Of a stretch of 64,000 nucleotides of DNA, positions 3,364-64,000 are shown piece by piece. Made by a program: the position numbers and the translations under genes. Location of the stretch: contig OX597822.1 in the NCBI GenBank assembly GCA_951406725.2, positions 29,822,001 to 29,886,000 on the forward strand. The letters run 5' to 3'. How positions within the stretch are numbered: position 1 is the first letter of the stretch; every line of letters begins with the position of its first letter. Origin of the DNA: Octopus vulgaris (taxonomy: Eukaryota). The notes beneath the pieces are model-generated. The model was given only the letters and a program-made list of their open reading frames with translations, did not search any database and was not told the DNA's origin.

Positions 3364-3377
3364 TATATATGATATAG

Positions 3378-3557
3378 AGGGAATATGGAAAATACGAGAA
3401 ATTTTATTGCTTACAGCAATCATTTCGGCCCACCATGCATCGATCCCTTGCAGGTGGGATACTGTGCAAGTGGTTGTGGTGCATCATCGAGGCATCGATG
3501 CAGGATGGGTCGAAACGATCGTTGTGAGCGATATAGTTTCTCGTATATTCCATTCTC
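3378..3557. repeat. Imperfect inverted repeat (arms about 70 bp) containing GAAACGATCGT
   Basis: tggaaaatacgagaaa...tgcatcgat / atcgatgca...tttctcgtatattcca; follows (TA)n. Confidence 0.7.
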
Positions 3558-8572: not shown

Positions 8573-8635
<63 letters not shown>

Positions 8636-8755
8636 GAAGGGTGAAATTAATTAATTTGAGATCTCCTTTTTAGTAGAAGAAATAGCTATAACTCTTTGAC
8701 TGCTATTTCTAAATTCGGTATGTGGTAAGGCAATTCGTTGCCAAACCCTTTATTG

Positions 8756-8819
<64 letters not shown>

Positions 8820-9216
8820 TCTAACTTACAGGTGTAATTTGATTGTTCATTTTCAATTGATAAAAGGTGTTTTTTCTAATTTATATATATATATATCTAT
8901 ATATATATATGTGTGTGTGTTTGTGTGTGTGTATAGATACATATATATGTGTGTGTACGTGTGTGTGTATATACGTATGTGTATATATATATATGCGTGT
9001 TTGTTTGTGTGCGTCTGTGTATGTGCGCATGCGTGTGAGAGTATGATATACGTGAGTCATATGCAGGTATTTATCCGATATAAAATTTATGGTAATACAA
9101 ATGTGTACTCGTATAATGAGTACTCCACATGGACATAGGTAGGTTATCATCTACATTCTCTGATAGCATATAAATATACTCGAAACAGTTTCTGTAAAAT
9201 GTATATATACATACAT

Positions 9217-12127: not shown

Positions 12128-12181
<54 letters not shown>

Positions 12182-12352
12182 TTAATATTATCAAAGGGTA
12201 ATCGAAATATTAGAAATTTCCATTACCAGCAGCCTAGGGTGTAAAAATTCAGTCAATAGACTATATAAATACAGTGTACATTTAAACACTTAAGAAGTAG
12301 CCATCATAGCACTACCTCTTATGTGTTTAAATGTACAATGTATTTATATGAA

Positions 12353-12414
<62 letters not shown>

Positions 12415-17183: not shown

Positions 17184-17628
17184 CTGTGACAATATAAAAG
17201 CAATTTGATTCAAAACAACAGCATATTTGATAGTTATAGAGAATATAGTATCAAACGAGAAATGAAGAAAGTGAAATGCTGTCGGGATTAATGAAGATTA
17301 ATAGTGAGACAAACATAAAAAGGAAATAACTTGAGGGAGATTTTGTCGACTAATTACAAGGATAATCACACTTAAGTGAAGTTTGGTATGCAGAATCTTC
17401 TCTATGTTGTTTTCCCATCAGTCCTATTATTCGTAACTAATGTTATTACCTTCATTCTATTTCTCAAATAGACAGAAACAGGCCCCACCTTCAAATGTTA
17501 GTGAAATTTCCGACTCCACCCCAACAGCTTTATTAATGAGAATAAAAAAGATTTTGTGACCAAATAATCCTTATTTCTTCAGTATGGTGTTGAAAAATTC
17601 ACAAAAGTTGAAAGCCATTTTGATTATA

Positions 17629-18159
17629 TTGGGTTTACAGGAAAGTTCGTGCCGATTTATAGTAGCTTACATTTCAACTTATTTTAGAACATGGCTGAGT
17701 CCGTAAAATAGGATTTGACTACACCTCCGTTTAGAGCATAGTTTAAGCTATCTTTTCGTGGAAGCTTTATGTTCCTATAACCTGTATTAAGTATGTGACC
17801 ATTTAAAATGGAAGATAAGAAAGTTCATTTTCGGCACTTGAAACTTTGGGAACCAGACAAAAATTGCTGCAGCTCGGCTGGGATGTGTTACCCAACCTTC
17901 CATATTCACCAGATATTGCTCCTTCAGATTTCCAGTTATTCAGGTCTCTGCAGAATAGTCTTAGTGGTAAAAATTTCAATTCCTTGGATGACGTAAAAAG
18001 ATACCTTGATGAATTCTTTGCCATGAAACCACCTCAATTCTGGGAAGAGGGTATTTTCAAGTTAAAGGGAAGATGGAGATGCACTGTGCAACAAAACGGT
18101 TCATATTTGGATGATTAAAACTGTAATTGCAAGTATTTATTGACCTTTTTCTTTCCCTT
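17629..18159 (+). mobile_element. Second copy of the same deleted mariner, right TIR missing
   Basis: Left TIR, same deletion junction, YSPDIAPSDF motif (ORF 17846-18118). Confidence 0.9.
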
Positions 18160-18800
18160 ATATAGACAGTTTTTCTGCTTTTTTTTCTAGTTTCCTCAGG
18201 CTTTCGCCTACGAGAAACGATAAATTACTGGGGTGAGTAAGCTTTTCTGAAGAAATCGAATAAAATGAAATGGGATGAAAAGTACTATTGACGAAATGTT
18301 GATACGTTAGCCGTATCTTCTATGATATACAAACAAGCTTATTGTAACTGAACTAGTAAAGGAAAAGACCATCGTACATCGAAACATCTCTGTTGTTTCA
18401 TCAGTTTGTTTTAAAAATTTTTTAATAAATTCCACTTGTTTAACATGGCTGGAATAATTTCCTTTGCCTGTGTTTTTTTTAATTCTAAACGTCCCTTGAG
18501 GGTGGTTTCCTTTCCTAATTGTTAATATAATCTCAGCGATTCGAATTTTTTTTAAACCACCATGTTAGATATGTGAAACTTTATTATTTACCGAGTAAAA
18601 AAAATGAAAGCAAAGTAAATAAAAACAATGAAAAAATATAAAAGGAAAATAAAACAATAACATGGTTGTGTTTTGAGAACGATCAGGAAAAGTAGAAAGT
18701 AGATATAAAATCACAAATTTGCAAGCAATATTCTCAAACGAAATTGTACTCCAGAAAATTTCGTGCACACTGGGTAAGAAAAATAAGGTACATAACTCAC

Positions 18801-23236: not shown

Positions 23237-23634
23237 TGTATATATATATTAGTTTAACTTTCTAGATCTTTTCACTAATTCATTCATGATATCTAGCTTC
23301 CATTGTGCATTATCACAATTTTTTCTTCATCCCTGGGCTTTATAATTTCACTATATTTAACGTCTTTTACTAATTTTTGATTTGTCTGTCATCTTTGAAT
23401 TTTATTTTTATTCATCGATTCCCAACGTGCATACACCTTCATTAACATTACCAATCTTTTAATTTTAATTAATGTTATGGGCATCTAACTTTCTTGGAAT
23501 ATATATATTATACTAATTATCTTTTTTTAATAATTTTGATATATATTTAAAATAATATAAATTAATTAATCTTATGTATTGGCTTAAGTTTTTCATTGTA
23601 TGATTTGCCTAATAGTGGTTTTATCTCTAATTTG

Positions 23635-23686
<52 letters not shown>

Positions 23687-30646: not shown

Positions 30647-30755
<109 letters not shown>

Positions 30756-30856
30756 TAATAATAATAAATGGTAAAATTAATTAATTAAGAAGTAATCAGT
30801 AATTTCACCAAGTAGAATTCGGCATGAAAAAGACCATTTCATGGTAAGCTTAAGTA

Positions 30857-31152
30857 ATACTTTATAATCAGGGTTCAGCAAAGATTTGCTTCACCACATA
30901 CCGAAGTTTAGAAATAGCAGTCAAAAAATCTTAGCTATTCCTTCTACTTTAAAAGGGATTCCCAGAAAAACCTAATAGGTAACCTAATATCGATTGATTT
31001 TCGTTATTTTACCCTTTTGCCTGCGTGGATTGTGTTCAAGTACTTTGGTTTTTCTGGGAGTCCCTTTTAAAGTAGCTAAGATTTTTTGACTGCTATTTCT
31101 AAACTTCGGTATGTGGTGAAGCAAATCTTTGCTGAACCCTGATTATAAAGTA
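30857..31152. repeat. Inverted repeat (arms about 105-115 bp, spacer about 75 bp)
   Basis: tactttataatcagggttcagcaaagatttgcttcaccacataccgaag... and its reverse complement ending at about 31152; related fragment at 8635-8755. Confidence 0.85.
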
Positions 31153-31255
31153 TATATATATATACATGCACATACATACATGTCTCTCTATATTAATGTC
31201 TATGTGTGTAAGTGTATAATACATATATGTATATATATAATATATACATACTATA

Positions 31256-32894: not shown

Positions 32895-33460
32895 TTGGGT
32901 TGTCCGGAAAGTTCGTGCCAATTTTTAAAGAAAAGAAAAAGGTCAATAAATACGTGCCATTACATTTTTAATCAATCAAATATGAACCATGTTGTTGCAC
33001 AATGCGTCTCCATCTTCTCTTTAACTTGAAAATACCATCTTCCCAGAATTGAGGTGGTTTCAAGGCAAAGAATTCATCAAGGTATCTTTTTACGTCATCC
33101 AAGGAATTGAAATTTTTACCATTAAGACTATTCTGCAGAGATCTGAATAAGTGGAAATCCGAAGGAGCAATATCTGGTGAATATACAGGGTGGGGTAACA
33201 CATCCCAGCCGAGCTGCAGCAATTTTTGCCTGGTTCCCAAAGCATCAAGTGCCGAAAATGAACTTTCTTATCTTCCATTTTAAAGGGTTACAGAATTAAC
33301 ACAGGTTATAGGAACATAAACCTTCTCCCACGAAAAGATAGCTTGAACTGTGCTCTAAAAGGGGGTGTAGTCAAATTCTATTTCATGAACTCAACCATGT
33401 TCTAAAATAAGTCGAAATGTAAGCTACTATAAATCGGCACGAACTTTCCGGACAACCCAA
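32895..33460 (-). mobile_element. Internally deleted mariner element with both TIRs and TA target duplication
   Basis: TA|ttgggttgtccggaaagttcgtgcc ... ggcacgaactttccggacaacccaa|TA; MEDKKVHFRH start joined to the C-terminal HPVYSPDIAPSDFHLF motif. Confidence 0.93.
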
Positions 33461-34214
33461 TAGTTCAAACGTCATCTCTACCAGATTCCCGGTAAAATGG
33501 CAATAAACAACGCACACAGAAAAAGAAGACTCGCTGATTCTGTCCATTAGTTTTCCTGCAGACTCTTGAGCTGCATCTCTAGCAATTTATATTTTTGCTC
33601 GGAGGCCCAAGTGGCGGGTAAAGTTAGACACATGGGCCCAGTTCTATGAAGTTTAACGAACCCGTTGTATTTCTTGAGATGTTCTATGTAGCTCACTTTG
33701 TAATACTGTTTTTGTTTGGGTAGGAGCAAAACAATCTTTCTTCGTGATCAGCGTCGCCTCTTGGAGCGTGGGTGTTTCTTGTGGGTCCTTCCTATTGTAA
33801 GTGGATTTAAAATGGCCGAATGAATAAGATAAACATTTTGCAACCAAGAAGTTTCGAGTTTGATCCCACTACGCGGCATCTTAGGCAAGTGTCTTTTACT
33901 ATAGCTTCGGGTCAGCCCAAGTTTTGTGATAGACGGAAATTGTGCAGAAGCCCGTCGGATGGATTGTATTTGTGATTCAAAGATCCAACATTATCACGCA
34001 TCGTGTCATGCAAGTTCTGTTAAGAATTGCGTTAAGAAATGTGTTAAGGGTACACCTGATCGTGGAATGCTCAGCCACCAAGGGCTAATTCACCAAGCAA
34101 GTAAGTCAGTTAATCAAAAGGTAGAATCTTCATCGTCGAACTAACGGAGATCCATTATTGTTTCTCACTCACATAGAAAAAAACCCCAGCAATGTTAAGT
34201 GAATGTTTACTTAC

Positions 34215-45169: not shown

Positions 45170-45197
45170 TGACTGGACACTTGAATTCAATATCACT
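45170..45197 (-). CDS. uif: 28-nt exon supplying the first Cys of the CTL (SDIEFKCPV)
   Basis: Strong acceptor ttttttttctctctcttaacag and donor gtaagt; phase 0-1; gives CPVKW with the next exon, the typical CP..W start of a long-form CTL. Confidence 0.8.
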
Positions 45198-45981
45198 CTG
45201 TTAAGAGAGAGAAAAAAAAGGCGAGTTAGAAAAATTCTGAGAGTTTTCTGAGGATAGGTTATGGTGTGGGGAATGCAGAAGTAAGTCATTAAGCTAATAG
45301 ATTTTCTTTATTCCTTATAAAAAAGATACATAGAGGGAACAAACAAGGACAGACAAGGACATATAAGGGTCAGATACACTCTTACAACAGATTAAATACG
45401 AATGAGTTTATGGATATGAATGCAGAATGATGTAAGGTTAAAAATTAAGATGTTAAATTATTACTATTTACAGGGTTCGGGTTAGTGAACTAACCTACCG
45501 GTTGATTTCCTTTTGGTAATCTTTCCTGTTCTTCTATGCTCAGACCGACCGTGTCAGCACGGCTCCTTGCATTCTCATCTTTCTTACTACTTCCGTCCAT
45601 CTTTTTTCCAAATACTCTTTGCGGCAGGTTCCTCCTCTCCAGACGGATCTTGCTGGAAAGATGGGCAGCGATTTAATCCACCAGCTCACGTCCGGAGATG
45701 AATTGGCCCGTCGTAATCCCTTTCACTCGCGTCTTTCATACCGCGTCTTTCATACCGCGTCTTTCAATATGGTTATTACGCAGAGAAATAAGCTAACAGA
45801 CTACCAGATGAAACCTCGGCAGTTCATAAACAGTTATCTGATATCATGTTTTACTTTAACAGAAATGAAAATGGCTTCAAAATAGAGTAGAAAATAAGTT
45901 ATAATATTAATTTTATGCACATCCATCATAATTAGGATGTTTTGATCAGTATAGACTCTCGATTTATTAATGTCCTGCATT

Positions 45982-46318
45982 GTGAAGGCGCATGGGTCAG
46001 TGGTTAGAATGTCGAGCTTACGATCGTGAGGTTGTGAGTTCGAATCCCGGACCGGGCTGCGTGTTGTGTTCTTGAGCAAGACACTTTATTTCACGTTGCT
46101 CCAGTTCACTCAGCTGTAGAAATGAGTTGCAACGTCACTGGTGCCAAGCTGTATCGGCCCCTTTGCCTTTCCCTTAGAAAACACTAGTGGCGTGGAGAGG
46201 GGAGGCCGGTATGCATGCGCGACTGCTGGTCTTCCATAAACAACCTTGCCCGGACTTGTGCCTGGGAAGGTAACTTTCTAGGGGCAATCCCATGGTCAGT
46301 CATGACCGAAGGGGGTCT
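45982..46318 (+). mobile_element. SINE head D plus tail e
   Basis: A/B boxes (GAGTTCGAATCCC) and the same central segment as the 9796 copy, with a different 3' half. Confidence 0.8.
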
Positions 46319-46932
46319 CAGCAATATTGAAATCCCATATTACAAACGACACGATTCGTCTTCTCCCTTAGACGAAAACGATCACAATTACAAAGAATAT
46401 AAAAATACATGTAAAATAAATCTAAGGTCGTTGAATTTCAGAATTGGAAGGCCAAGCTAACGGACGTATTTCTTTCTTGTTCTTTTAATACTTTCGAAAA
46501 GGGATATTTTATCTGATTAAATACTTCTACTATAGCAATCCAACATCTTTGTCATTGTTCTTAGCGTGATTTAATGTTCAATCTTCTATAACACATTGAT
46601 TTTCTGCACACCCTGCGATACTGCAAGTTCACTACAATATTTTTTCAGTAATGAATTTGTGTATTGTAAGTACGAGAAGGATTCTAAAGTTTCGGACACG
46701 ACACTTTGTTAGAGAGCATTGATCTCAGATTACGGCATTGATGAAGTCACATGCTCATTTTCGTCATTTACGGCTTGAATTCCACCTTCAGCATGACGTT
46801 AAAGCGTGCATCAGGAGATCAGGGCGTTTCAATGAACTCGTCGGCCTGCTAAAAATAGCAATACAAATTTACGTCACATTACATCACTTCTCTTACAAAG
46901 GAGGATAAACTGGACAAAGTTGTCGAATACAC

Positions 46933-46998
<66 letters not shown>

Positions 46999-47134
46999 AA
47001 TATTATATTAAATTAGAGACAAAACCACTATTAGGTAAATCAAACAATGAAAAACTTAAGCCAATACATAAGATTATTTAATTTATATTATTTAAATATA
47101 TAACAAAATTATTAAAAATATATAATTAATATCA

Positions 47135-47198
47135 CACTACGATCGTTTCATGGCTGCTAACTTCTTCAAATTTTCAAGTCACAGTCATTCATCAGGTG
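47135..47198 (-). ncRNA. Minimal type I hammerhead ribozyme motif (mirror copy)
   Basis: Reverse complement of 47265-47328 in the other palindrome arm. Confidence 0.7.
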
Positions 47199-47264
47199 GT
47201 TTAAATATTTATCTTGGCGAGGTTTAAACAATTGTTTAAACCTCGCCAAGATAAATATTTAAAC

Positions 47265-47328
47265 CACCTGATGAATGACTGTGACTTGAAAATTTGAAGA
47301 AGTTAGCAGCCATGAAACGATCGTAGTG
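47265..47328 (+). ncRNA. Minimal type I hammerhead ribozyme motif
   Basis: cac-CTGATGA-atgactg..tgactt/aagtta..cagccat (stem II)-GAAA-cgatc-GTA-gtg; palindromic stem III ACGATCGT; 3-bp stem I. Confidence 0.7.
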
Positions 47329-47541
47329 TGATATTAATTATATATTTTTAATAATTTTGTTATATATTTAAATAATATAAATTAAATAATCTTATGTATT
47401 GGCTTAAGTTTTTCATTGTTTGATTTGCATAATAGTGGTTTTGTCTCTAATTTAATATAATATAATATTTTACTATAAAATTGAATTCAATCCTAAATCT
47501 GATTTTTCCCTGTAAGTTTGGATTTATTCCCTAATATTTAT

Positions 47542-47586
<45 letters not shown>

Positions 47587-47734
47587 TATATATATATGGC
47601 CTGTTCGCTTAGCTAGCGGGGTGGCATCATTTGAAGGCTAAAACAATGCGAAGTACATTGTGACCAGCGATGTGTAACAACATATGATAGCCTGGTCGCT
47701 CACGGTGGTTATGGTGATATATATATATATATAT

Positions 47735-48362
47735 TTAAAATTAAATAAGGGTAGAAATTGATATTAATCAATTAAAACCAGTGGCCTAGCATATTTTAAA
47801 AAATCCGAAGATTAAAAATTTTTACATACAAAATTTAGAGGAATGACCACTAAAAATGGTCAAGCCTGTATGCTAGATATAGACGTCAAAATCGCCATTT
47901 AACACGAAGAATGTGTTCTCAAGAAAAAATTCACCAAAAAACGAAAGTGTAAAAATAAGCAAGGCAAATGAAAATATACGAAATAAAAAACGATTACCTA
48001 TCTATTAATTAGTTTCATTTGTTAATATTTACATCTGTGAATACGTAAACATCTGCAAGATCATCAGCATAGTCTGTAGTTTACAAAACACAATTTCCAG
48101 AACTAGATACAGAACGCTCGACCGAAATCCAGCATGTATCAAGTTCTACAAATTATATTTATGTGTATCCTTCAAATGCTTTCACTTTGGCGCGCTGAGA
48201 TCGGAAATTACTCTGCAGTTAATAAACTACAGCAGTCAATTTACCGGCTAGAGAACATTTTTTAAAATTTAAAAGTAAATAAGAGTAGAAATTGATATTA
48301 ATCAATTAAAACCAAGTGGCCTAGCATATTTTAAAAAATTCGGATTTTTTAAAATATGCTAA
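47735..48362 (-). mobile_element. Penelope-like element with a terminal direct repeat and a degenerate hammerhead (about 48001-48072)
   Basis: tagaaattgatattaatcaattaaaacca(a)gtggcctagcatattttaaaaaat occurs at about 47750 and 48286, the second folding back on itself. Minus strand has ctatg-CTGATGA-9-bp stem-GAAA-ctaattaa-ta-gatag. A fragment of the terminus also occurs at 60655-60740. Confidence 0.55.
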
Positions 48363-48589
48363 GACAGAAAACATAGATTTTTACTTCTTCAACCACAGAA
48401 AGTGTAGGAAAAATGTCTGCAGCATAAAGATAGGTTTTCGCCTCGAATACGCTCCGTTGCTGCCTCGTCCTTCTATAGCATTCTCGTCGTAGCTGTTTTC
48501 AGAATTCAGCATGGCAACAGCAAAGATATATAGGCTTTATACAGAAAATGTCTATTTTCATGTCCATACTTGTTAATGCTGGATGTGTA

Positions 48590-48624
<35 letters not shown>

Positions 48625-48645
48625 GTGTGTGTCTGTGTTTGTATA

Positions 48646-48720
<75 letters not shown>

Positions 48721-48957
48721 TTATCACCCCTCGCATAATACGTATATACGCACGCATATATACCCACGCACATACAGACACCGACACACACACACACGCA
48801 CACAGTGAAACCTTGCGAGATGCGGTTGCTGGTTTTATTGTAATTATTGCGTTGTTGCTCTGATAGTTCTGTAGTTGCATGAATCATGCGTGTTTGCGCT
48901 ATTTATTTTGCGGCTATCCATCTATCTATCTATCTACAGAACCATGTATGTAGTTGT

Positions 48958-49087
<130 letters not shown>

Positions 49088-49532
49088 GTTTCGAGAAAGA
49101 AGATTGATTAAAAATTCTCTCGCAATGTAGAGGTTTGTGCTTAGAAGTGCTCAATAATCAAGAGTCACTTGAGACAGAAGATATAAATATGCAATGTGTA
49201 GAAACAAAAGACCTGGTAATTCTATCCACAAACATGACTGATTAGAGATAGATTTAAAGGACAAATGTACATGATAGAATAAAGATATATAAATACTCAG
49301 CGATTTAAAAAAAAAATAATCATAAATGAATAAATATATTAAAAATATGTGTAAATTAATGGATTAAAAAAATCCCCGAATAGAGGCATAATAACGTTAA
49401 AACATGCGTGCATAGGTTTTTTTGTTTCTTCACATTATATGAATGTGTGTATAGACACATTCACACACACACATATAATTTTTTTTTTTTGGTAATGAGA
49501 TAAAAAAACCAAGGCTGTGTAGATTTTAGAAC

Positions 49533-49572
<40 letters not shown>

Positions 49573-49577
<5 letters not shown>

Positions 49578-49774
49578 ATCCAAACAAGAAAACACAAAAA
49601 AAACACAACAACGCGAGGACGTGGAAAAAATATAGTATTATTGGAAACTCAGGAAAGAAGGGTAGAAGGAGGGTTTAACGTTTCGAGCGGAGTTCTTCGT
49701 CGGAAACATAGGAGAAGGAAAGATCCAGAGAAGGGAAGACAGAGGAAAAAAATCGCCAACGGTACACACGAGAT

Positions 49775-49775
<1 letters not shown>
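49573..49775 (-). mobile_element. Short Penelope-like repeat with a hammerhead-like motif (core CCGACGA) at 49673-49707
   Basis: gttt-CCGACGA-agaactccgctc-GAAACGTT-aaac; 3' end abuts (TA)n. Confidence 0.45.
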
Positions 49776-49854
<79 letters not shown>

Positions 49855-50192
49855 GAGAGACAGAGACAGTGATACAGATAAACACGATTAGGCTACATAT
49901 ATATATATGTTCAGTCAACCGTGTCAGCCTAAAACTTAGGACGCCAAACATTGTCACTTGATACTAATACAAGGACGTAACGGGTAACCTACAAAAGTTT
50001 CCAAGAGCAGTTATATGGCTATCCTCTACCAGTCAGGCCCTATTCAAAGCATACTAATTTGAGGTATGAACTCCCTATAAAAACTAGGCAAACTTCAAAC
50101 ACTAGTCAGAAGCAAAACAGCTGAGACACGGGTCAAGTCTTTCTATTTCAACAATTTGAAAAAATCAATGTAAACTGTGAAACCGGATAAAT

Positions 50193-50226
<34 letters not shown>

Positions 50227-50230
<4 letters not shown>

Positions 50231-50648
50231 TACTCGTTTACTTGTTTCAGTCACGTGACTGTGGCCATGTTAAAGCACCGCCTTTAGTCGAGCAAATCGA
50301 CCCCAGGACTTATTCTTTGTAAGCCTAGTACTTATTCTATCAGTCTCTTTTGCCGAACCGCTAAGTTACGGGGACGTAAATACACCACCATCGGTTGACA
50401 AGCAATGTTGGGGGTACAAACACAGGCACACAAACACACACAAACAGACACACACACACACACACACAGACACATATATATATACGACTGGCTTCTTTCA
50501 GTTTCCGTCTACCAAATCAACTCACAAGGCTTTGGTCGGCCCGAGTCTATCGTAGAAGACAATTTCCCAAGGTGCTACGCAGTGGGCCTGAACCCAGAAC
50601 CATATGGTTGGTTAGTAAGCTACTTACCACACAGTCACTCCACCGCCT
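50227..50648 (-). mobile_element. SINE family A
   Basis: Same modules as other family A copies. Confidence 0.85.
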
Positions 50649-50649
50649 A

Positions 50650-51607
<958 letters not shown>

Positions 51608-52190
51608 AAAATATGCATATACATACATAAATAGATAGCTGTTACATACTGCCTATGTATTTTACATATCAATCGTTGAAGAACAGTGTCATCGATCGTT
51701 GGTTTCCAGTTAGAAAATATCTGATTTCACAGTGTTTTTACAGTGAGAGTGACAAGAGAGTCTCTGTAATGCGTTAGAATAGATATAATAAGCTCAAATT
51801 TTTATTGCTGATGATTCATGTTGTTCACCGATATGCGGTAATTCTATTGTTGTTATTGTTCTATTTTTCTTATCTATATTTTATCTATGACGTGTATTAT
51901 ATCTGTGATATGACTAACCTCTCTATTTGATTTTTAATCATATTTTATAAACTATAAATTATAGAATTGCGCCAGTGGAAATAGTGCAGATGTGATGAGC
52001 TAGTCTTCAAAGCTGGCATTGAGAAATGACAGCTTCAAAGAAATATATTTATTCAGGTCTGAAATATTTTATTTTTCCCACGGTATTAAAATAGTAACGA
52101 GGCAACTATATCACCTGTAAATGATCGGTTGACCTGCTAGAAATAGCAACCAAATTTCCGTCATTTAAGATCAAATCCTATCGTCTTAAA

Positions 52191-52226
<36 letters not shown>

Positions 52227-52231
<5 letters not shown>

Positions 52232-52538
52232 CTGAGCACGTGACCGACTAGGCTATCAGATGTTGCTACACATCGCTGGTCACATTGTACTTCGTATTGT
52301 TTTAGCCTTCAAATGAGCCCCCCCCCCGCTGGCAAAGGGAGCAGGCCAACAGAAGAAAGAGTGAGTGAAAGTTGTGGCGAAAGAGTCCAGCAGGGATCGC
52401 CACCACTCCCTGCCGGAGCCTCGTGGAGCTTTAAGTGCTTTCTCTCAATAAACACTCATAACGCCCGGTCTGGGAATCGAAACCGCGATCTTATGACCGG
52501 AAGTCCGCTGCTCTAACTACTGGGTGATTGCGCCTCCA
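52227..52538 (-). mobile_element. SINE head B plus tail d
   Basis: Head B followed by a ..catttgaaggctaaaac..ctgatagcc..ggtgat(at)n tail. Confidence 0.82.
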
Positions 52539-52589
52539 AACACACACACGCACACACACACACACACACGCACACACACAAGAATGTTT

Positions 52590-52915
52590 TGCGTAATGAG
52601 ATAAAAAACCAAGTTTGTGTAGATTTTAGAACATTTATAGATAGGTCTTACAGCTGTTTCAAGGATATTTATTAATTATATCCCTTCATCGGAGATGGTG
52701 TGAGGGGATTGGTTAAGTCATAGTTAGTTTAGATGTGATGCAAAATAGAGAGTGATGTAGAGGAAAGAAAATAGATGCGAGATATGTAGGGATATTGAAG
52801 TTGTAGATTCAGTTTTTTAGGCAGAATGGTGTATGTGTAAGATTCCAATACCTTATGAGTAAAGTCCAAAAGTCCAACAGAGTTTAAAGTGGGTCCTTCC
52901 AAATATAGAGTGTAT
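52590..52915 (-). mobile_element. Penelope-like element 3' fragment with a hammerhead at 52646-52695 (core CCGATGA)
   Basis: Homologous to 1441-1760, 28090-28270 and 49490-49540. The minus frame reads ..[10 protein letters not shown].., resembling the P.LN end of GIY-YIG endonucleases; GAAACAGCTGTA stem III. Confidence 0.6.
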
Positions 52916-52989
52916 AGACACGCAGACACACACACATACACATATATATATATATACAAACACAGACACACACACACACATATACATAT

Positions 52990-53100
<111 letters not shown>

Positions 53101-53232
53101 CATACATATACATATATATATATATATATATCTATAGGTTCAGCAAAATTTAGATTCAGATGAATATGGTACTTAAGTTAAACGCACCAGAAATTTGGTA
53201 AGGTATTATCCATATAAATCAAATGGGGGTAT

Positions 53233-53390
53233 TATAATCAAAATAAGCAACAAGGATATCGAAGGTGGTGTAGTACAATCGTTTCATGCTATTTCATTTA
53301 ACTAAACAAATGAACGTTGTTTATTTAATTAAAGTACCATTAAACGATTGTACTACACTACCTTGGATATCCTTGTTGCTTATTTTGATT
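53233..53390. repeat. Inverted repeat (arms about 55-70 bp) inside TA-rich microsatellite
   Basis: taatcaaaataagcaacaaggatatc...gtagtacaatcgttt / aaacgattgtactac...gatatccttgttgcttattttgatta; includes GAAACGATTGTA (hammerhead 3' half) on the minus strand. Confidence 0.8.
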
Positions 53391-53392
53391 AC

Positions 53393-53431
<39 letters not shown>

Positions 53432-53572
53432 CATATATATACACATATATATACACATATATATACATATACATATATATATACACACATATATATACAT
53501 ATATACATATACATACATATATATATATACATATACACATATATATACATATATATATACATATATATATAC

Positions 53573-54206
<634 letters not shown>

Positions 54207-55508
54207 TGGAGAGCATATTGGGTAAGTTACTCATGGATGCACTTAGTCTGAGGGAAATTAGGTCACGGCTGATTCTGTTAGTAATTATAGATTAACTAAA
54301 AATAATATCTATTAATCATAGATTATTTGCCCTGCTATTAATTATAGATTTGCAAAAACGCCTGCAAAAGCAGCAGCAGTAACGCCATTTATTACATAGT
54401 TAAATTTGTTGCATCTCTACATATAAACTCCCTAATAAAGTCAAAGACTAACCGTTGCTTTCCATAGTTGTTATTTTTATTAAAAACCAGATCAACTCAA
54501 TTTTGCATTGTCTATAGTGTCCACAATTTCCTGTCTATTGGGCTCATTTAAGTTATCTCTTTCTGTTTTTTTTTATTAATATTAATCCAGCTAGTAAGGT
54601 AGCGAGCTGGGGAAATTGTTACCGCGCCGGGTAAAACGCTAAGTGTCATTTCGTCCGTCGGTAAGTTCTGAGTTCAAATTCCATCGAGGTCGACTTTGCC
54701 TTTCATCTCTTCGGGATCGATAAAATAAGTGCCAGTTGAATACTGGAATCGATGAAATTGACTTACCCCCTACCTCGAAATTGCTGGCATTGTGCCAAAA
54801 TCTGAAACCAATATTAATTCAGGGAGTAAGGCAGTGAGCTGGCAGCATTATTAGTACGACGGGCAAAATGCTTGGCAGTATTTCGTCCGTCTTTACGCCG
54901 AGGTCGACTTTGTCTTTCATCCCTTCGGGATCGATAAAATAAGTACCAGTTGCGTACTAGGGTCGTTGTAATCTAATTACTCTCTTCTCCAACCTTGTTA
55001 GCCTTGTGCCAAAATTTGAAACGAATGTTAATGTAGGGAGTTTGCTAGATTTGTTCTTTGTGTGCCGGACTTTCCCCTGATGCATTTTCTGTCATACATA
55101 TTTTGCATTTATATATAGGCATTTGACTCTCTTAATGTATAACATTATCAGCAATGCAGCGCGACAAAGATGTCATTTAGATTCGTCAAAGCTAGAGAAA
55201 AACTACATCGCAACATCACAAAAAAAATCAGGAAATAAAAGAAAAAGAAAAACAAGTATGGGCCTCCCATATGGGAGCTGTATAACGATTTAAACAGCTA
55301 ACTGAAATTTCCTACAAAGTACAGAGTACTAACATCTCTCCAGCCAGACATGATCATCACCTCTGAAGTAGTCAAACAAACGATCATACTGATACTTACA
55401 GGGCACTGAGCCCTGAAAGGAACTTCCACAATAAATTCCATTCCGGAGGATTTTTTTTTATTTTGTAAACTTTAGCACGGCATACAAACTCCACTTCAGG
55501 CCACCTCA

Positions 55509-55932
55509 GGATCTTTTCGGTTCGGCAGTTTTTAACATAATTTCTAGGTAACTAAAAAATTTTAAACTTCGTATACTGGTAGAATGTGTTTATAAAACAT
55601 CTTTTTCTCTTGGCTTTATTGAGAAAATTCTATAGTTTGTAAGATATTTGTTGTTGTTTTTTCTTCAATTTCTGCAATTTCAGCCAATCAGTGACATCTA
55701 TTGAGTTAAAAAGCATTCTGTGCCGTATGAATGTGTCCCTCGTTTAAGAAACAAATTGGGTTTATTTACATTTGTGAAGAAAAAAAAGATACCCTTCCCC
55801 CACCCCTAACCCTAACTAACCCTAACCCTAAAAGAGATTAAAATGCAATAGATCGATTCTAGGGTCATAATTATGGGTGACAATTTCATATGACACCGCT
55901 AGAAAAATCTGCCGTTCAAACCGAAAAGATCC
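55509..55932. mobile_element. MITE/non-autonomous DNA transposon with GGATCTTTTCGGTT TIRs and internal (CCCTAA)n
   Basis: ggatcttttcggtt..cggcagttttt / aaaaatctgccg..aaccgaaaagatcc; flanks cctca and cctcc. Confidence 0.75.
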
Positions 55933-57623
55933 CCTCCTCATTATGATGACGAAAATTTCCATTAAGTTTGAAGCAGTATCTAGCTTGGTTCCTCTGGTTT
56001 CAATGTTCACAGGCTTCAATGAGATTAATAGATGGCCGTGTTATGGATTCGGTCGATCACATATGTGACCAAGTTTGGATAACCCAGATCAATATCGTTC
56101 AAACGGAAGTATCAAACATCAAACCGTTCCATTCTTTAATAACATATCCTATTTTTGTAGAATGGGCTACACTGACAGTTGTAATCGCCTTTATTAAAGA
56201 TAGAGTGTAATTTGAGGAATATTTAGGTGCCTTTTTTTTATCAAATCATGTAACTTTGTAAAGTTACATAATAAGGCATAAAAAGAAAATGACTCTCCCC
56301 AGACACAATAGAATATGCTTCAACACACGAACTCATATAAAGAATCTTGAAAACCAAATCCAAAAACTTTGTAAGGTTTCTAGGAAATATGTGTTCTCTA
56401 AAATCGTCAAAACATTCAAAAACTCAATACTTTCTACGTTATAGTGGTAGCTGTGTTGGTGGTGATGGTCGTGCTGGTAGTAACGGTTGTGTTGTTGGTG
56501 ATGGTTGTGTTGGTGATGATGGCTGTGTGTGTGTGTAGGGGGGTCATGGTTGTGTTGGTGGTGACGGTTGTGATTGTGGTAGTATTACCAAAAAGCGTCT
56601 TAACACATTAAGGAAATAACAAGATCATTCCCATTGATACCGTTGAAGAAGAAAAAAACCATGAACACCAAGTGAGAATTGAGAAGCTGAAAGGAAAAAG
56701 AAGGCAAAGAAGACGTTAGAGAGAGGATGCACAATGTCCAGTAGCAGCTGGTTTCAGGAAGACCAACCTAATAGCGTAGTGATTTGTGTATGGGCCAAGA
56801 GGAAGTGGAGAGCCATGATCGTCAGCGCTAGTAGATATAGCATATAAAAAGAGAGGGGGCGGTGGTGGTGCCCATTATTTAGTCCCAGATCAGTACAGAT
56901 CGAATTAACCTATGAACTAAGAAAAGGGCAGATAACAATGTAACATAAGCCCACTTTATTCAAAGTCCTTTTCTAAGACGCTGATGTATGATACGATGAA
57001 GATTTGGCTGCTATCTCCAGCTTGTTGAGCGACTATACCCCAATTTGAGCCTTCCTCTCGAAAGCGCCCAACAACTGCTCTCAGACAAATTAGTACACAC
57101 ACACACACGCACACACACACACACGCGCACGCACACACACACACATACACACACACACACATACACACATATATTTTTCTCATTTTATCCTGTTATTGTT
57201 TTGGTCGTTGCTCTGCGGTGATGCTTGTAAGATTCAGTCGAACAAATCAACCCCACCTCACCATGCCCATTTTTGTTTAAAGTCTGGTACTTATTCCAGC
57301 GCTACCCTGAGCTGAGCCGTGAAGTCACGGGGATGTAAACGAACCAGCATCGGTTGTCAAGCGGTGTTGAGGAGAAAACACAAACACAGACAAACATACA
57401 TACATTCATACATACTCACATATACACACGCACACGTGTGTGTGTTTGTGTGTAAATATATACGACGGGCTTCTATACAGTTTCTACCTCTCAAATGTTC
57501 TCACAATTCAGTGGTTGGAGATATAGTGGAAGACGGGCCCCGAAACCAGTTGGTTTCAAAGAGAGTTTCTTAACCAAACAGCCATATCTGTCTGTCTGTC
57601 TCTCTGTCTGTCTGTCCGCCTGC

Positions 57624-57697
<74 letters not shown>

Positions 57698-57788
57698 GTG
57701 TGTCTATGTGTCTGTCTATCTATCTGCCTATCAATGTCTCTGCCTGTCTGTCTGTCTCTCTTTCACTCTCTCTCTTTCCCTCTCTCTC

Positions 57789-57820
<32 letters not shown>

Positions 57821-57824
57821 GCCA

Positions 57825-58020
57825 TAATAGATCGTTTGCCACTACACACATTTTCTTTTCTTTCCTTGTTTCTCTCCTTGTTTTTTTCTGTGTCCCTTTC
57901 TGTAGAAGAGCGTAGGCTCGAAACGTAAAATACTTTTTCTATTCCTGAGCGTTATACTAATACATCTGTTTGTTTTGTACACCACCTGTCTTCGTCTTTT
58001 GCTTTTTTCGTAAACTCTCC
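57825..58020 (+). mobile_element. Short repeat with a hammerhead-like motif (variant core CTGTAGA)
   Basis: ttt-CTGTAGA-a-gagc gtag gctc-GAAACGTA-aaa; lies between (TA)n tracts. Confidence 0.5.
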
Positions 58021-58023
58021 CAA

Positions 58024-58027
<4 letters not shown>

Positions 58028-58082
<55 letters not shown>

Positions 58083-58382
58083 GGTACCTATCTAGCAGTA
58101 TATTGGATATATGTTATCCCATGGTGGGTTGAATTTTCAACCCCTATCTCATTTTATATATATATATATAAATATGTATGTATATATATATGTGTGTGTA
58201 TGTATATATATATGTTTGTATGTGTATATATATGTGTGTATGTATATATATATGTGTGTATGTATATATATATGTGTGTATGTATATATATATATGTGTG
58301 TATGTATATACATATGTGTGTATGTATATACATATGTGTGTATGTACATATATATGTATATATATATGTATATATGTATATA

Positions 58383-58428
<46 letters not shown>

Positions 58429-58630
58429 AATATATGTATATATATGTATATATATATATATATGTATATATATATGTATATATATGTATGTATATATATA
58501 TATATGTATATATATATGTATGCATATATATGTATACATATATATATATGTATATAAATGTATATATATATATATGTATGTATATATATGTATATATATA
58601 TATATGTATATATATATGTATATATATATG

Positions 58631-58687
<57 letters not shown>

Positions 58688-58688
58688 T

Positions 58689-58724
<36 letters not shown>

Positions 58725-58927
58725 GTATATATATTTATATATATATATATGTATATATATATGTATATATATATATATGTATATATATATGTATATATGT
58801 ATGTATATATATATATGTATATATATATGTATGTATATATATATGTATATGTATATATATATATGTATATATATATATGTATATGTATATATATATGTAT
58901 ATATATATATATATATATGTGTATATA

Positions 58928-58960
<33 letters not shown>
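58028..58960. repeat. About 0.9-kb (TA)n/(TATG)n degenerate microsatellite
   Basis: Direct reading. Confidence 0.95.
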
Positions 58961-60135
58961 CATTTTGTGGAATTGGTTGAAAAATAGGTGACATAAGGCT
59001 AAAGAAGAATTATATTAATAACAGACACGCCCTACGATGAAACACTTGGCCATTAATAACATGATCCGATTTCTTTATGCCCGAAGTTGTCCATACCTAA
59101 AAGAGAAACTGAAGCGAAATAAAATGACTGTAACAAGGACATCGAACCTAGATATGCAGGTGGTGCTTTTTTTTCTCGGTATCAAATATTCAAGCAACCA
59201 CAACCGTGGGTCTTAAATTTCCTCGAATCTAATCGTGCTTATCGTTCATTAGATGTATTGCAAACAACATGCACATGCAAGTGCTACCAGTCATACCGGA
59301 AGCCAGCAAATGTATGGGGTCATCAGGAGAGAATGCGCGCCGTTTCGGGGCCTACTTCTCGACGGTATCAATGCGCACCGCACCCCCTCACTGACATGAG
59401 ACCCCGCTTGCTAGATCAGCTGGTTATCAAATACAGCTCAATATTCTTCTAGCCATCGCTCATCGTCTCTTTTTTACCAAATCCAGTGACTAGCCTTCTC
59501 CACTGTAGCTTGGATATCGGTCATGGTGATATTGAATTTTAGAACAATATTATTTAGTAAACAAGAAACGAAATAAAATGACTATAACATGATCATCGAA
59601 CCTAGTTGTGCAGGTGCAACCAGTTTTTTCTCGGTATCCACAAATGTAGGTCTTAAATTTCCTCGAATCTATTGGTGCTTAGATTTACTTAGAATTTTAG
59701 AACAATATTTTTTAGTAAACAAGGAGTATATTTGTCTTTTGGGTATGTTCTTATTTTGTTTACGTATTAGCTTAGATATTGTGCTCCTAAGTTGAATACG
59801 TGTACATTACACCTTATATTGATCTGTTTGAGTTGTGATCTAAATAGTGACAGCTGTTGCAATGGCTGATAAGATAGTTTATTACGATATTTAAGCTAAA
59901 TAAGAAAAGAGATAAAAACTAAACGATATAATCCTTGCTGTACTGTTTACGTAATAATGCTCTAACATCCCCAGTAAACTATGTTGAACAATAAGCTCCA
60001 TTTGGAAAATATATTCAAGCCTCAGGATTGCGTGAAGGCACCAAACCTGTTATAAAATGCTGTCTGAGCTGTTTTCATCGCATGAAATTATCAGCAGCTC
60101 ATAAATTTAAATACTGTGTTTATTAAATACTATTA

Positions 60136-60197
<62 letters not shown>

Positions 60198-60202
<5 letters not shown>

Positions 60203-60498
60203 CGTGATCACCGTGACCGACCAGGCTATCAGATGTTGCTCTACATTGCTCGTCACAATGCGCTTTGCCATGTTTTAGCCTTCAAATGACGCCACGCCGC
60301 TGGCTAAGCGAGCAGGCCAACAGAAGAAAGAGTGAGAGAGAGTTGTGGCGAAAGAATACAGCAGGGATCGCCACTACCCCCTGCCGGAGCCTCGTGGAGC
60401 TTTAGGTGTTTTCGCTCAATAAACACTCACAACGCCCGGTCTGCGAATCGAAACCACGATTCTACAACCACGAGTCCGCTGCCCTAACCACTCGGCCA
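60198..60498 (-). mobile_element. SINE head B plus tail d
   Basis: Homologous to 52227-52538; tail-only copy at 47598-47720 (+). Confidence 0.82.
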
Positions 60499-60510
60499 CA
60501 CACACACACA

Positions 60511-60579
<69 letters not shown>

Positions 60580-60584
60580 CTATT

Positions 60585-60632
<48 letters not shown>

Positions 60633-60736
60633 CATACATACATATATATATATATTTTAATCTTCGGATTCTTTTTTTAATATGCTAGACCACTGGTTTT
60701 AATTGATAAATATCAATTTCTACCCTTAATTAATTT

Positions 60737-60771
<35 letters not shown>

Positions 60772-61411
60772 ATATATATTCTATTATTTTTTTCTTTTAC
60801 TTGTTTCAGTCATTTTTGACTGTGGCAATGCCGGAGCATCGCCTTTTTATTCGAAGAAATCACCCGCTGAACTTATTCTTTGCAAGCTTGGTACTTATTT
60901 TATCATTTTCTTTTGCCGAACCGCTAAGTTACGGTCACCTAAAGACACCAATTGAATTATAGGTACAACTCACTTTTGCCAGCTGGGTGGACTGACCAAC
61001 GTGAAATAAAGCGTGGACACAACGCGCAGTCAAGAATCGAACTCACAAGCATTCGATCGTGAGCCGAGTACCCTAACCACTAAGCCACGCACCTTTACAA
61101 ACACCTTCACAAACAGCTAAATAAAATACTTTTTATTTTTTCAGAACTTTCAAGACAGGTACAAAAGAGGGAAGACATTATCCTGAAACAAGTGGCCTGA
61201 ACTAAATGCTTCTAAGAGAGTGAAACACCGTTGGATGTACCCAAGAGCCAGATGGTGACTCTAAACTGAGCGAAGGACTAAATCCACCACCCCAGAAAAC
61301 CGGAATGTATTGAATTCCTTGTATTCGCAAATATCGCTTTTGAATGAGACAATTCATTTGGCGAATGGAATTTATTTCACGGGTTCGATTAATGGTTGTA
61401 CTCTACCTCAC

Positions 61412-61425
61412 ACCACTACTCACAT
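61412..61425 (-). CDS. Tentative 14-nt microexon (DVSSG)
   Basis: Acceptor ttttgcattctgttttcag and donor gtgagg; converts phase 1 (signal exon) to phase 0 (28-nt exon). Supported only by splice motifs and frame. Confidence 0.4.
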
Positions 61426-62249
61426 CTGAAAACAGAATGCAAAACTTGAAATAAATACTGCAAGGTATCCAATCAGACATGTTTATATTTTTGCCAATCT
61501 ATCGCCCTTGACCAATATAATTTTTTTCATCGATCCTGAAAGATGGAAGGCAAAGCTGTGCGCAACAGGTATGAAGTTAGAACGTAGAACATCAGAACAT
61601 ATACCGCAGGGTATCTAATGACTCTGCCAATTCGTCGCTTGACTCTAGCTGGATTTTAACCCAGAATATATTTGGTGCTGAACTGAACACTGAACTAAAC
61701 ACAGGATGGCATTTACGTTTGTGCTCTTTTGATTTTATACTCCCATCCCATTCTCATTTGCCTGTTTCATAATTATTTCTAAATTTATTCCCCTTAATTA
61801 CAAATGTTTAGAGGATATAACCTATTATACAGACTTCAGTACTTGCCGAGTCCTATATTTTATCGACACCGATAGAATTTGAACTCAGAAATTAAACTCT
61901 TGCAAAAGAAATACTGGAAAGTATTTTGTCCTTTGCCCTGCGTATTCTAATCACCCCACTGCACTTAAGTGTCTCATTTTAGTCACTCGATGTGCTAGAA
62001 ATAGAAGTAAGGGTCCCAATAACCCTTTCCCTCAAAAGGAGTAATTAGACCCTAAAAAGGGGATGATTAGCTGGAATATTTTAGATCATTGTTTTGCTGG
62101 ACCAGGAATGATTCTATATTAAAGAACAATAAACAAAACATAGACGCAGGAGTGGTTGTGTGGTAAGTAGCTTGCTTACCAACCACATGGTTCTGGGTTC
62201 AGTCCCATTGCGTGACACCTTGGGCTATTGTCTTCTACGATAGTCTCGG

Positions 62250-62905
62250 TATAGTAGAAGGATGCAGAAAGTAGTAAACGCAGAATCTGTGGACAAAATG
62301 GTGAAACCGTATGGCATATAACCAGCCAGTGTACGCCGCTAGCCTAGAAGGAATATAAGAGACACCACGAAAATATAGCAAGGCTTGTCCATTGGAACTT
62401 TGCAACAAGTATGGACTTGACAGAACAAAAAATTGGTACGACCACAAACCCGAAAGCATCATCGAAAATGATAAGGCAATGCTCCTGTGGGATTTTATGA
62501 TTCATTGCGACCATGAGATAGAGAATAGGAAGCCATGCTGGATCATAGATATAGCATGCTCAGCTGACAAAAAGGTATGCGATCAGGAAGAAAGAAAAGT
62601 CGTTAGATATGACTGGTTAGCTTGGGAGGTTAAGCAATTGTCGATGAAAAAGGTAGTAGTAGTACCAATAATTGTCAGAGCCCTGTGAACAGTGAGTAAA
62701 AATCTGAAGAAGTACATGGGACAAATAAGGACAGCAATAAGGGTGGAGCACTTGCGGAAAACAGCACTGCTTGGTACCGCTCGAATACTCCGGAAGGTGC
62801 TCGAAAAATAAGAGGTGTTACCTCAGTTCAGTGGTAGTGAACAGCTGACATTGTAGTGCATCTCCAGCGTTAGAAGCTGTGCAAAGGTAATGATAATAAT
62901 AATGA
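62250..62905 (+). mobile_element. R4/Dong-type non-LTR retrotransposon 3' end with TAA-rich tail
   Basis: VHWELC.KYGL..WYDHKP..LLWDF.I.CD...RKP..IIDIAC...VPIIV.AL...TALLGTARILRKVL*, then a short 3' UTR and taatgataataataat. Confidence 0.85.
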
Positions 62906-63175
62906 TAGCGAGAGAGTTATGTAAAAGTGATACCAGTGGTTATCGGAGCGTTTGGCTCAATCCCATTGAAACTTCAAGACTTCTTAAGGCAACTGGAAAT
63001 CCCATGCAAGATTGATGTCTTGCATAAAACAGCCTTATTGGGCACAGCGCACATCTTAAGGAAAGTATTCTCTGTCTGAGGTCCTTGTTGTGACTTGACA
63101 GATGACTAAAGACTCCGGTGCATTTTTACCTACACCGTGTTACGAAGGAATAATAATAATAATAATTATAATAAT
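62906..63175 (+). mobile_element. Second, distinct R4/Dong-type 3' fragment with (TAA)n tail
   Basis: VKVIPVVIGAFGSIP...KTALLGTAHILRKVFSV* followed by (taa)n at about 63150-63175. Confidence 0.8.
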
Positions 63176-63392
63176 CCTTTCTAATTTGGTGGGGGACTAG
63201 TCGACAATCTCAAACCCAGTGCGAAACTGGTACTTAATTTATCGACCCCAAAAATAGAATATGTTAATCCGACCCCGGCGAAATTTGAGCTCATAAAGAC
63301 GGACGAGGGACACAGCTGGAAGAGCCAAGGTTTCATCCAGCTTGCTGACTTGATCACAATTGTTATAAGAATTGCTTTGTTATGTATTTCAC

Positions 63393-63498
63393 CACAAGAA
63401 CCACAGACGAGGGACACACTAGTAAGACAAATAAGAACAAATACGATCACGACGACGAGACGATAGACACATAACACAAACAATAGCAACAATAACAT
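63393..63498 (-). CDS. Tentative first coding exon: hydrophobic signal peptide (MLLLLLFVLCVYRLVVVIVFVLICLTSVSLVCGSC)
   Basis: ATG at 63498 followed by 35 mostly hydrophobic codons; weak donor gtgaaa (phase 1); possible upstream acceptor gctttgattcag at 63509. Confidence 0.5.
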
Positions 63499-64000
63499 TA
63501 TTACAGAACTGAATCAAAGCAAAACTTAACCAAATACTAAGGCAAACACAAAAAAGAAATCAGATAAAAAAAATATCAAGGGTTTGTTCAGGTGTGATAA
63601 ATTGACTCATCATGTGAAAATGATCTGGGTATTTTTTTGTTATTGTATGCTTTTTTTTTTTTTAAATTCATACCCTATTATAGATGATTTATGTCTGGGA
63701 ACCAACTTCTGAAAAATCAATGACAACATGAAACTACTTGTTAGAAAAAGAAGAAAGAAGGAACATCTACAAAAATATATTTAGGTAAATGGTTTATGTA
63801 TGGTCGTGTTTCACTATATAATTTAAGTTACCGTCCATTAAATTCAAGTGTTTTTTTTCTCTATTTTACGAGACCAAGGTTCTATAATTTATTGTTTAAG
63901 TTTGTGTAATATATCTAATGTAACATACAGTGAGCAGTAAACATTCAATTAGAAATATCAAAGCAGCAAGAATAGAATAACATTAAAATAGAGTTTTGAG

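Follow-up and report, generated by a model that had tools for sequence, protein, structure and literature searches.

The 64,000-nucleotide stretch of Octopus vulgaris DNA analysed here (the window) contains a 464-bp loopless palindrome, which we consider highly probable to be the product of a young Penelope-like retrotransposon (PLE) whose hammerhead-bearing, non-coding end (pLTR) was copied twice in a single insertion. The layout is most likely ordinary in kind, as it has been published and recurs several times in the window, and the single locus, a clean and young example of a published retrotransposon footprint, matters little alone. Its repeat family is of wider use: it is present in many copies whose 5' boundary and two 3' ends are fixed, and it makes twin priming and fold-back countable against each other from one assembly. 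It is a good system in which to study the formation of PLE inversions and the origin of double-stranded RNA in octopus.

The palindrome and its hammerhead motifs

The two arms (Table 1) are 232 nt each, 99% complementary, and meet with a spacer of 0 nt. Exactly two positions are mismatched between them (47036/47427 and 47034/47429), which agrees with a previous interpretation made from the letters alone (hereafter, the sequence-only reading) of a 464-bp loopless palindrome with 232-bp arms and about two mismatches. At 23% GC, it is the sole palindrome of such length in the window, the other perfect palindromes found being microsatellites. The same reading had the unit sitting in (TA)n. Both flanks do have (TA)n, but only on the left does it touch the arm directly, within a period-2 tract spanning 46936-47008; the right arm reaches it only after an 83-nt tail. 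The 47034/47429 mismatch coincides with a polymorphism that is frequent in the family (26-39% of depth has C), and rare alleles elsewhere are common to both arms; the mismatch pattern may reflect two templates, conversion or polishing.

Table 1. Features of the palindrome locus, in window positions
Feature	Position	Strand	Basis
Left (TA)n target tract	46936-46995	.	period-2 tract, sequence
Left arm, pLTR-like unit ending at the family's 'short' 3' end	47000-47231	-	inverted-repeat search, end mapping
Type I hammerhead motif, left arm, sense to host gene	47135-47198	-	descriptor match at 47195
CAATTG, spacer-free head-to-head joint located at the 5' boundary that recurs in the family	47229-47234	.	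joints of other copies
Right arm, pLTR-like unit	47232-47463	+	inverted-repeat search
Type I hammerhead motif, predicted cut after A47325	47265-47328	+	descriptor, folding
One-arm-only 83-nt tail ending at the family's 'long' 3' end	47464-47546	+	end mapping
Right (TA)n target tract	47547-47582	.	period-2 tract, sequence
Nearest host exon, ~28-nt micro-exon (bounds approximate)	45170-45197	-	homologue alignment

Each strand carries a full hammerhead motif, as had been claimed, and this is of type I. On the plus strand, it consists of a 3-bp stem I (47265-47267/47326-47328), CUGAUGA (47268-47274), a stem-loop II of 13 pairs with a 12-nt loop (47275-47313; z -2.6), GAAA (47314-47317), and a self-complementary stem III octamer, ACGAUCGU (47317-47324). 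Pair A47275-U47313 closes stem II right after the core, giving A10.1-U11.1 without the usual G-C and without an extra nucleotide after A9. The arm motif has the CUGANGA, GAAA and NUH core and the three helices of a type I hammerhead, as defined in a descriptor that we wrote ourselves and that fits the motif by design. This descriptor gave two matches in the 64-kb window, namely the two arms, none in 100 shuffles of the window, and none in 5000 arm shuffles (0/5000). The sequence-only reading had proposed an Infernal/RNAMotif hammerhead search as a check. Against the motif, the Rfam hammerhead models had no match in the palindrome even at E<=10, and the Rfam output held only hairpin and miRNA look-alikes, all below the cut-offs.

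The monomer core is predicted to mispair, with the active fold at -5.5 vs -9.7 kcal/mol. In an unconstrained co-fold, two copies of the motif form an 8-bp intermolecular stem III (-28.4 vs 2 x -9.7 kcal/mol). This co-fold and the self-complementary octamer are in line with the dimer-type hammerhead with palindromic stem III that had been proposed, and the ribozyme is predicted by these models to work as a dimer via stem III in the parent RNA.

To survey other copies, contigs from four public runs (of 24) were aligned to 47190-47550 at 85%. Among the variable sites listed (26 over the stretch), nine fall in the 64-nt motif, all in stem-loop II. None of these nine lies in the 25 positions of the core, stem I and stem III (P = 0.008); P falls to 1.7e-4 once the 12 proximal positions of stem II are counted as well, a selection made after the data were seen, and both values are read with the understanding that the variable sites are subfamily differences and not independent events. 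A core that was not conserved across genomic copies had been named beforehand as grounds to reject the sequence-only reading, and the core positions hold 0 listed variants. At the predicted cut site (47326), the run contigs, which cannot show RNA ends, have no depth step and no joint among those listed. Run X3, tentatively taken to be RNA, lacks depth on the left arm, and we draw no conclusion from that run.

The repeat family and other two-armed inserts

The palindrome unit belongs to a very abundant, 5'-truncated octopus repeat family. In the four runs, 9435, 2545, 2878 and 213 contigs matched the 361-nt stretch. In runs X1, X4 and X2, summed depth rose from 1-2e5 over the ribozyme core to 1.5-3.2e6 around 47440, so that the short 3' end had 14-16 times the depth of the core; summed contig depth is not a copy number, and many single contigs among those listed have a depth of 8-65. 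A 3' excess of this size, 14-16-fold, is the pattern that 5'-truncated retrocopies give. The window itself holds single-armed copies at 23.5k and 60.7k, the first of which (23510-23649, plus strand) is of the same family, 5'-truncated and 92% identical, with the short 3' end followed by (TA)n. No continuous open frame runs through the arm and tail, and GC content after the ribozyme is 14%. Pattern scans for family copies with flanks gave 0 in metagenome contigs and 0 in prokaryote genomes; two viral-contig matches to the family pattern (L001 and L002) are without stem I/II and look like chance matches. Bacterial promoter and tRNA scans found nothing.

Two 3' ends recur. Among the loose ends listed (23 of 317 rows), (TA)n follows behind 47464 in at least 35, 18, 21 and 4 contigs of the four runs, and (ATT)n-like sequence follows behind 47538 in at least 17, 36 and 2 contigs. 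Also among the rows listed, a variant 3' end lies behind 47451-47452, and ends behind 47538-47546 continue as (ATT)n-like sequence or (TA)n. Because 47463 recurs as a 3' end in other copies, the tail on the right arm alone corresponds to the known PLE tail. The two arms are then probably ordinary products of the family, the left one a short-end copy and the right one a copy with tail. This disfavours the earlier suggestion that the left arm is a deleted inverted copy, since 47463 is a recurrent 3' end before (TA)n (4/4 runs and a copy in the window); a 6-nt microhomology deletion keeps some probability as the origin of the asymmetry between the arms. That suggestion had drawn on a 14-nt match between the outer left and far right ends (46992-47005 and 47532-47545), which is real but is made of the letters A and T only. 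As a target-site duplication the match is rejected, being inverted rather than direct; as proof of a deletion it is disfavoured and is better read as similar end junctions. Long-end arms often run into (ATT)n before (TA)n (47538-47546, 30722-30767 and 669-685), and this (ATT)n may come from reiterative copying at the RT start.

The 5' side of the family was assessed from joints within contigs, with detection covering the part right of ~47210, as the aligned stretch starts at 47190. Of 15 joints listed (17 in all), 10 connect an inverted 5' end (47221-47233) to partners starting at 47256-47454, several of them, among those listed, with 3-6 extra letters, and the rest are two strand switches elsewhere and three internal deletions. 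Thus, head-to-head junctions are common in the family and differ between copies. Seven of the 10 inversion-type joints leave at 47229-47233, which places the palindrome centre at the 5' boundary of the family; from there it is 33 nt to stem I and 94 nt to the predicted cut. One X4 contig spans the centre, reaching 33 letters to one side of it and 47 to the other, and has 4 substitutions and 8 gap letters. Among the pieces listed (32 of 15153), none shows the exact loopless centre.

Closely spaced inverted repeats were sought by self-BLAST of the window, to which a motif scan added non-overlapping stubs. Altogether, there are about eight two-armed inserts in the 64 kb, that is, the palindrome and seven others, one of them less clear, and the palindrome is the youngest-looking. 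Six are overlapping-arm palindromes of the same build: ours and those at 669-1060, 12180-12356, 30770-31153, 53135-53393 and 3370-3600, the last being old and less clear, with arms ~70% identical. Five of the six clearly pair one (TA)n-ending arm with one arm ~80-100 nt longer, and none is symmetric. At 8634-8757 and 8812-8882, between (TA)n tracts, an inverted 25-30-nt long-end stub is joined to a short-end arm with which it shares no family sequence (non-overlapping arms); the stub at 8634-8757 has 19/24 identity. The remaining self-BLAST matches are repeat pairs, TA-rich tracts and a hairpin at 48322-48361.

The inserts differ in age and family. The one at 669-1060 belongs to an older, related family, with arms identical at 116/123 positions, a 19-nt spacer, the tailed arm on the left and (TA)n on both sides; its 669-760 part holds a tail related to that of the palindrome. 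A second family is found at 30770-31153 (arms 100/101 identical plus a 9-nt gap, ~75-nt spacer), where a tail of ~87 nt is followed by (ATT)15 and (TA)n. The inserts at 53135-53393 (arms 67/75 identical), 12180-12356 (35/38) and, less clearly, 3370-3600 are head-to-head with a one-sided extension. In those at 53.1k and 3.4k, half of a hammerhead survives, namely its 3' part, and its stem III is of the kind seen in the palindrome. A third family lies beside the palindrome at 47733-48400 (minus strand), with direct repeats (47733-47818 and 48267-48353), a decayed hammerhead-like motif (~47995-48073, minus strand) and an 18-bp stem in the hairpin at 48322-48361; another 3' stub is present at 60655-60741. 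Just left of the palindrome, 45980-46320 is a SINE-like repeat that has five or more relatives across the window. Transposase fragments at 17627-18160 and 32926-33462, which we take from their translation to be mariner-like, are 91% identical and in opposite orientation.

Probable Penelope-like identity and the proposed origin of the two arms

Five anatomical features of EN+ PLEs are present and point to membership: a hammerhead in a terminal repeat, 5' truncation with fixed 3' ends, a head-to-head inverted copy, a one-sided tail (83 nt here), and an AT-rich/(TA)n target. The partial tandem, with direct pLTRs around the ORF, is absent at this locus and is optional in truncated copies. The link to a PLE protein is one of anatomy only, as no RT or GIY-YIG gene was found within the window, where a six-frame PLE motif scan returned only five chance matches. 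The layout of inverted pLTR, one-sided tail and (TA)n target supports the young Penelope-like insertion in (TA)n that the sequence-only reading had put forward; for its suggestion of a non-autonomous element, a solo pLTR from an autonomous transcript fits equally well as a separate non-autonomous family. Partners are plausible because the available text of PMC13282606 reports 31 recently active Penelope-like families in O. vulgaris, and the repeat library of that study may already contain the family of the palindrome. Our search of the literature on octopus Penelope hammerheads found no paper describing this family.

Published EN+ PLE units are among the closest likenesses. The available parts of Craig et al. 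2021 (PMC8557442) describe a 5'-truncated copy that sits inverted at the 5' end, tails of 30-40 bp that are often restricted to one end, a (TA)n bias of PLEs and hammerheads in pLTRs, and call the mechanism of PLE tandem and inverted structures an open problem; those of Arkhipova et al. 2013 (PMC3846280) describe head-to-head pLTRs with palindromic junctions, read as self-priming. As presented there, these units share with the octopus palindrome the head-to-head inverted copy, the palindromic junction, the one-arm tail, 5' truncation, the (TA)n target and a pLTR of ~200-300 nt with a hammerhead. In contrast, both octopus arms are complete to the 5' boundary, the junction is loopless, the unit carries neither an ORF nor a direct pLTR, and its tail measures 83 nt vs the 30-40 nt given in the available text.

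The hammerhead resembles the PLE type I hammerheads of Cervera and de la Pena 2014 (PMC4209133), which, in the portion of that paper available, have a long helix II, a short helix I and a palindromic helix III, cleave weakly and dimer-dependently, and occur in Schistosoma as opposite-strand pairs 100-700 bp apart. The predicted dimer and the opposite-strand pairing are also alike; however, compared with those described, the octopus motif has A-U and not G-C at 10.1-11.1, no extra nucleotide after A9, a helix I of 3 bp and a helix II of 13 bp. For Poseidon of Anolis (PAc), the accessible text of Frangieh et al. 2024 (PMC11167929) states that the purified PLE protein cuts and extends both strands, that ribozyme cleavage is not needed (uncleaved RNA was used), and that RT starts at two internal sites bounding the tail. 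Common to PAc as described and the octopus family are two 3' ends bounding a tail, an AT-rich target, the uncleaved RNA template (proposed for octopus) and an ATG with which stem II opens (47275 in octopus). Unlike in PAc, the octopus frame after this ATG closes almost immediately, stopping at 47287-47289 in the palindrome copy, the tail is non-coding as read, and the palindrome has no linked protein. Metazoan non-LTR retrozymes, as described in the available parts of PMC7229834 and bioRxiv 10.64898/2026.07.22.740005, are similar in being ~300 nt, non-coding and AT-rich with a type I hammerhead, but they are tandem, whereas the octopus locus lacks a head-to-tail tandem and the ends of its unit do not match the predicted cleavage site.

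With modest confidence, we favour twin priming as the source of the two arms. In L1 twin priming, the two cut target strands prime two cDNAs, which are joined head-to-head. The same two-strand priming and head-to-head joining is what we propose for the octopus palindrome, except that in octopus the two sites of priming look fixed and overlap between the arms is usual, so that a palindrome results and not a simple inversion. In the proposed sequence of events, a PLE endonuclease would cut both strands of the (TA)n tract, and each cut end would prime RT on the uncleaved element RNA, one at the 'long' site (47546) and the other at the 'short' site (47463), leaving a tail on one arm only. Both cDNAs would run to the 5' end of the RNA (~47230-47234) and be joined without a loop, probably via the self-complementary AATT; one joint among those listed shows copies including the AATT letters. 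The hammerhead would act as a dimer in the parent RNA, while at the palindrome locus it would be locked in a 232-bp hairpin and silent, and the insert would likely be a dead-end by-product that adds double-stranded RNA to a host intron. In the literature searched, the coverage of which is incomplete, we found no paper that attributes PLE palindromes to twin priming.

Twin priming would explain why the tail is one-sided, why junctions vary and carry extra letters, and how stubs without overlap arise. The same PLE origin could also produce both arms by fold-back, in which one long-end-primed cDNA reaches the 5' end of the RNA, snaps back on a short terminal palindrome, copies itself and is captured at the TA-rich short site, a variant of the self-priming model in the available text of PMC3846280. 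We think this route less likely, although it explains the one-sided tail as well as the loopless centre with its self-complementary core, it fits minority alleles common to both arms (47287 T at <=5% of depth and 47344 A at <10%), as expected from one template, and its prediction that short/long asymmetry is always present is borne out by the five clear cases among the six overlapping-arm palindromes. Fold-back alone cannot make the non-overlapping arms at 8634-8757 and 8812-8882, and it is because of these two inserts that we favour two-strand priming over it; their stubs could be later central deletions, which fold-back would need. Six listed joints are without microhomology, most of them carrying extra letters, and the 47034/47429 mismatch, which matches a common polymorphism, is easier to explain with two templates.

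A separate question is the source RNA. Transcription of a dedicated non-autonomous element (a non-LTR retrozyme or a SINE-like PLE passenger) from its own loci is a serious possibility that we nonetheless rate below even, and it is compatible with the insertion steps proposed above. The lack of an open frame, the low GC content after the ribozyme, the sharp 5' boundary and the very high abundance are all consistent with such a source, as is the description of retrozymes as PLE pLTR derivatives in the available text of bioRxiv 10.64898/2026.07.22.740005. However, both arms reach 94 nt upstream of the predicted cut and so are not cut-to-cut monomers, and the head-to-tail tandem of at least two hammerhead units that defines retrozymes was found neither at the locus nor as a 'goes back' joint among 15 of the 17 joints. 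In addition, going by the accessible part of PMC11167929, RT from the first start-site copy on a pLTR-ORF-pLTR RNA would give the same short product.

Two further explanations carry very little weight. An assembly or read fold-back artefact, suggested by the near-perfect symmetry and by the missing exact centre among the pieces listed, is very improbable: other copies are joined head-to-head near the same 5' boundary in three independent runs with different junctions, the window also contains older palindromes built in this way, the arms differ at two sites, and the symmetry ends exactly at a natural 3' end of the family, beyond which the right arm continues into its natural tail and the flanks differ. 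Even less credible is movement of the whole unit as a palindromic MITE or a fold-back DNA transposon. Tc1/mariner MITEs are palindromes in a TA context, as is our insert, but a whole symmetric unit with constant ends and centre is not what we find: the ends are unequal, junctions vary between copies, copies are 5'-truncated, and the conserved feature is an RNA motif.

Host gene and predicted double-stranded RNA

A host gene with C-lectin, LDLa, CUB, Sushi and EGF exons occupies 411-45197 on the minus strand. Its CUB exon matches a protein at 87% identity in a cluster named Octopus bimaculoides LOC106868257, and the LOC106868257 protein aligns to 14 minus-strand exons, mostly at 80-90% identity, which points to an octopus host, probably of another species. 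Pfam on 15 frames, and on 102 of 163 candidate frames, returned only Sushi, CUB and a weak C-lectin. The palindrome is ~1.8 kb upstream of the micro-exon, and it likely lies within intron 1, a placement inferred from the homologue and not from transcripts, since the micro-exon encodes residues 29-37 of the homologue and residues 1-28 (the signal-peptide exon) were not found in 45250-64000 (best score 31 vs a self score of 134).

In a transcript of either strand, the antisense arm precedes the sense copy, and there is one sense copy per strand. The full RNA hairpin has a computed energy of -350 to -355 kcal/mol. When the transcript stops shortly after the motif, it folds at -185 vs -70 with the ribozyme fold forced, a cost of ~115 kcal/mol. 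Because of this cost, the ribozyme at the locus is predicted to be silent, buried in the hairpin. The computed folds thus agree, for either strand, with the masking of the ribozyme by a duplex that had been anticipated. Provided that the intron is transcribed, ADAR would find a strong substrate in the duplex, which has 178 A on the minus strand.

Editing could make such inserts relevant beyond this locus. The available text of PMC5625713, in which the repeats of this species are not annotated, gives Octopus bimaculoides a dsRNA-forming fraction of 4.4e-3, the highest reported, and one of the two strongest hyper-editing signals, and it describes a lizard Penelope as heavily edited. We counted near-perfect reverse matches of 50-mers by the measure given there, over 5995 positions in the window, and found 38 in two-armed inserts, 84 in microsatellites and 3 elsewhere. 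Two-armed inserts therefore hold 38 of the 41 non-microsatellite matching 50-mers, a biased count, as most come from the palindrome itself. With about one insert every 8 kb in the window, such inserts could be the main non-microsatellite source of double-stranded RNA. We tentatively suggest, as a speculative extension, that this is so and that octopus PLEs integrate by two-site twin priming as a rule, with a short-end and a long-end cDNA in every two-armed insert. If true, two-site twin priming would offer one explanation for the PLE 'tail' and for the palindromes joined head-to-head, and the inserts could underlie the near-perfect double-stranded RNA behind octopus A-to-I hyper-editing. At the DNA level, cruciform extrusion is plausible for a loopless palindrome of this GC content, with a modelled single-strand DNA hairpin of -248 kcal/mol.
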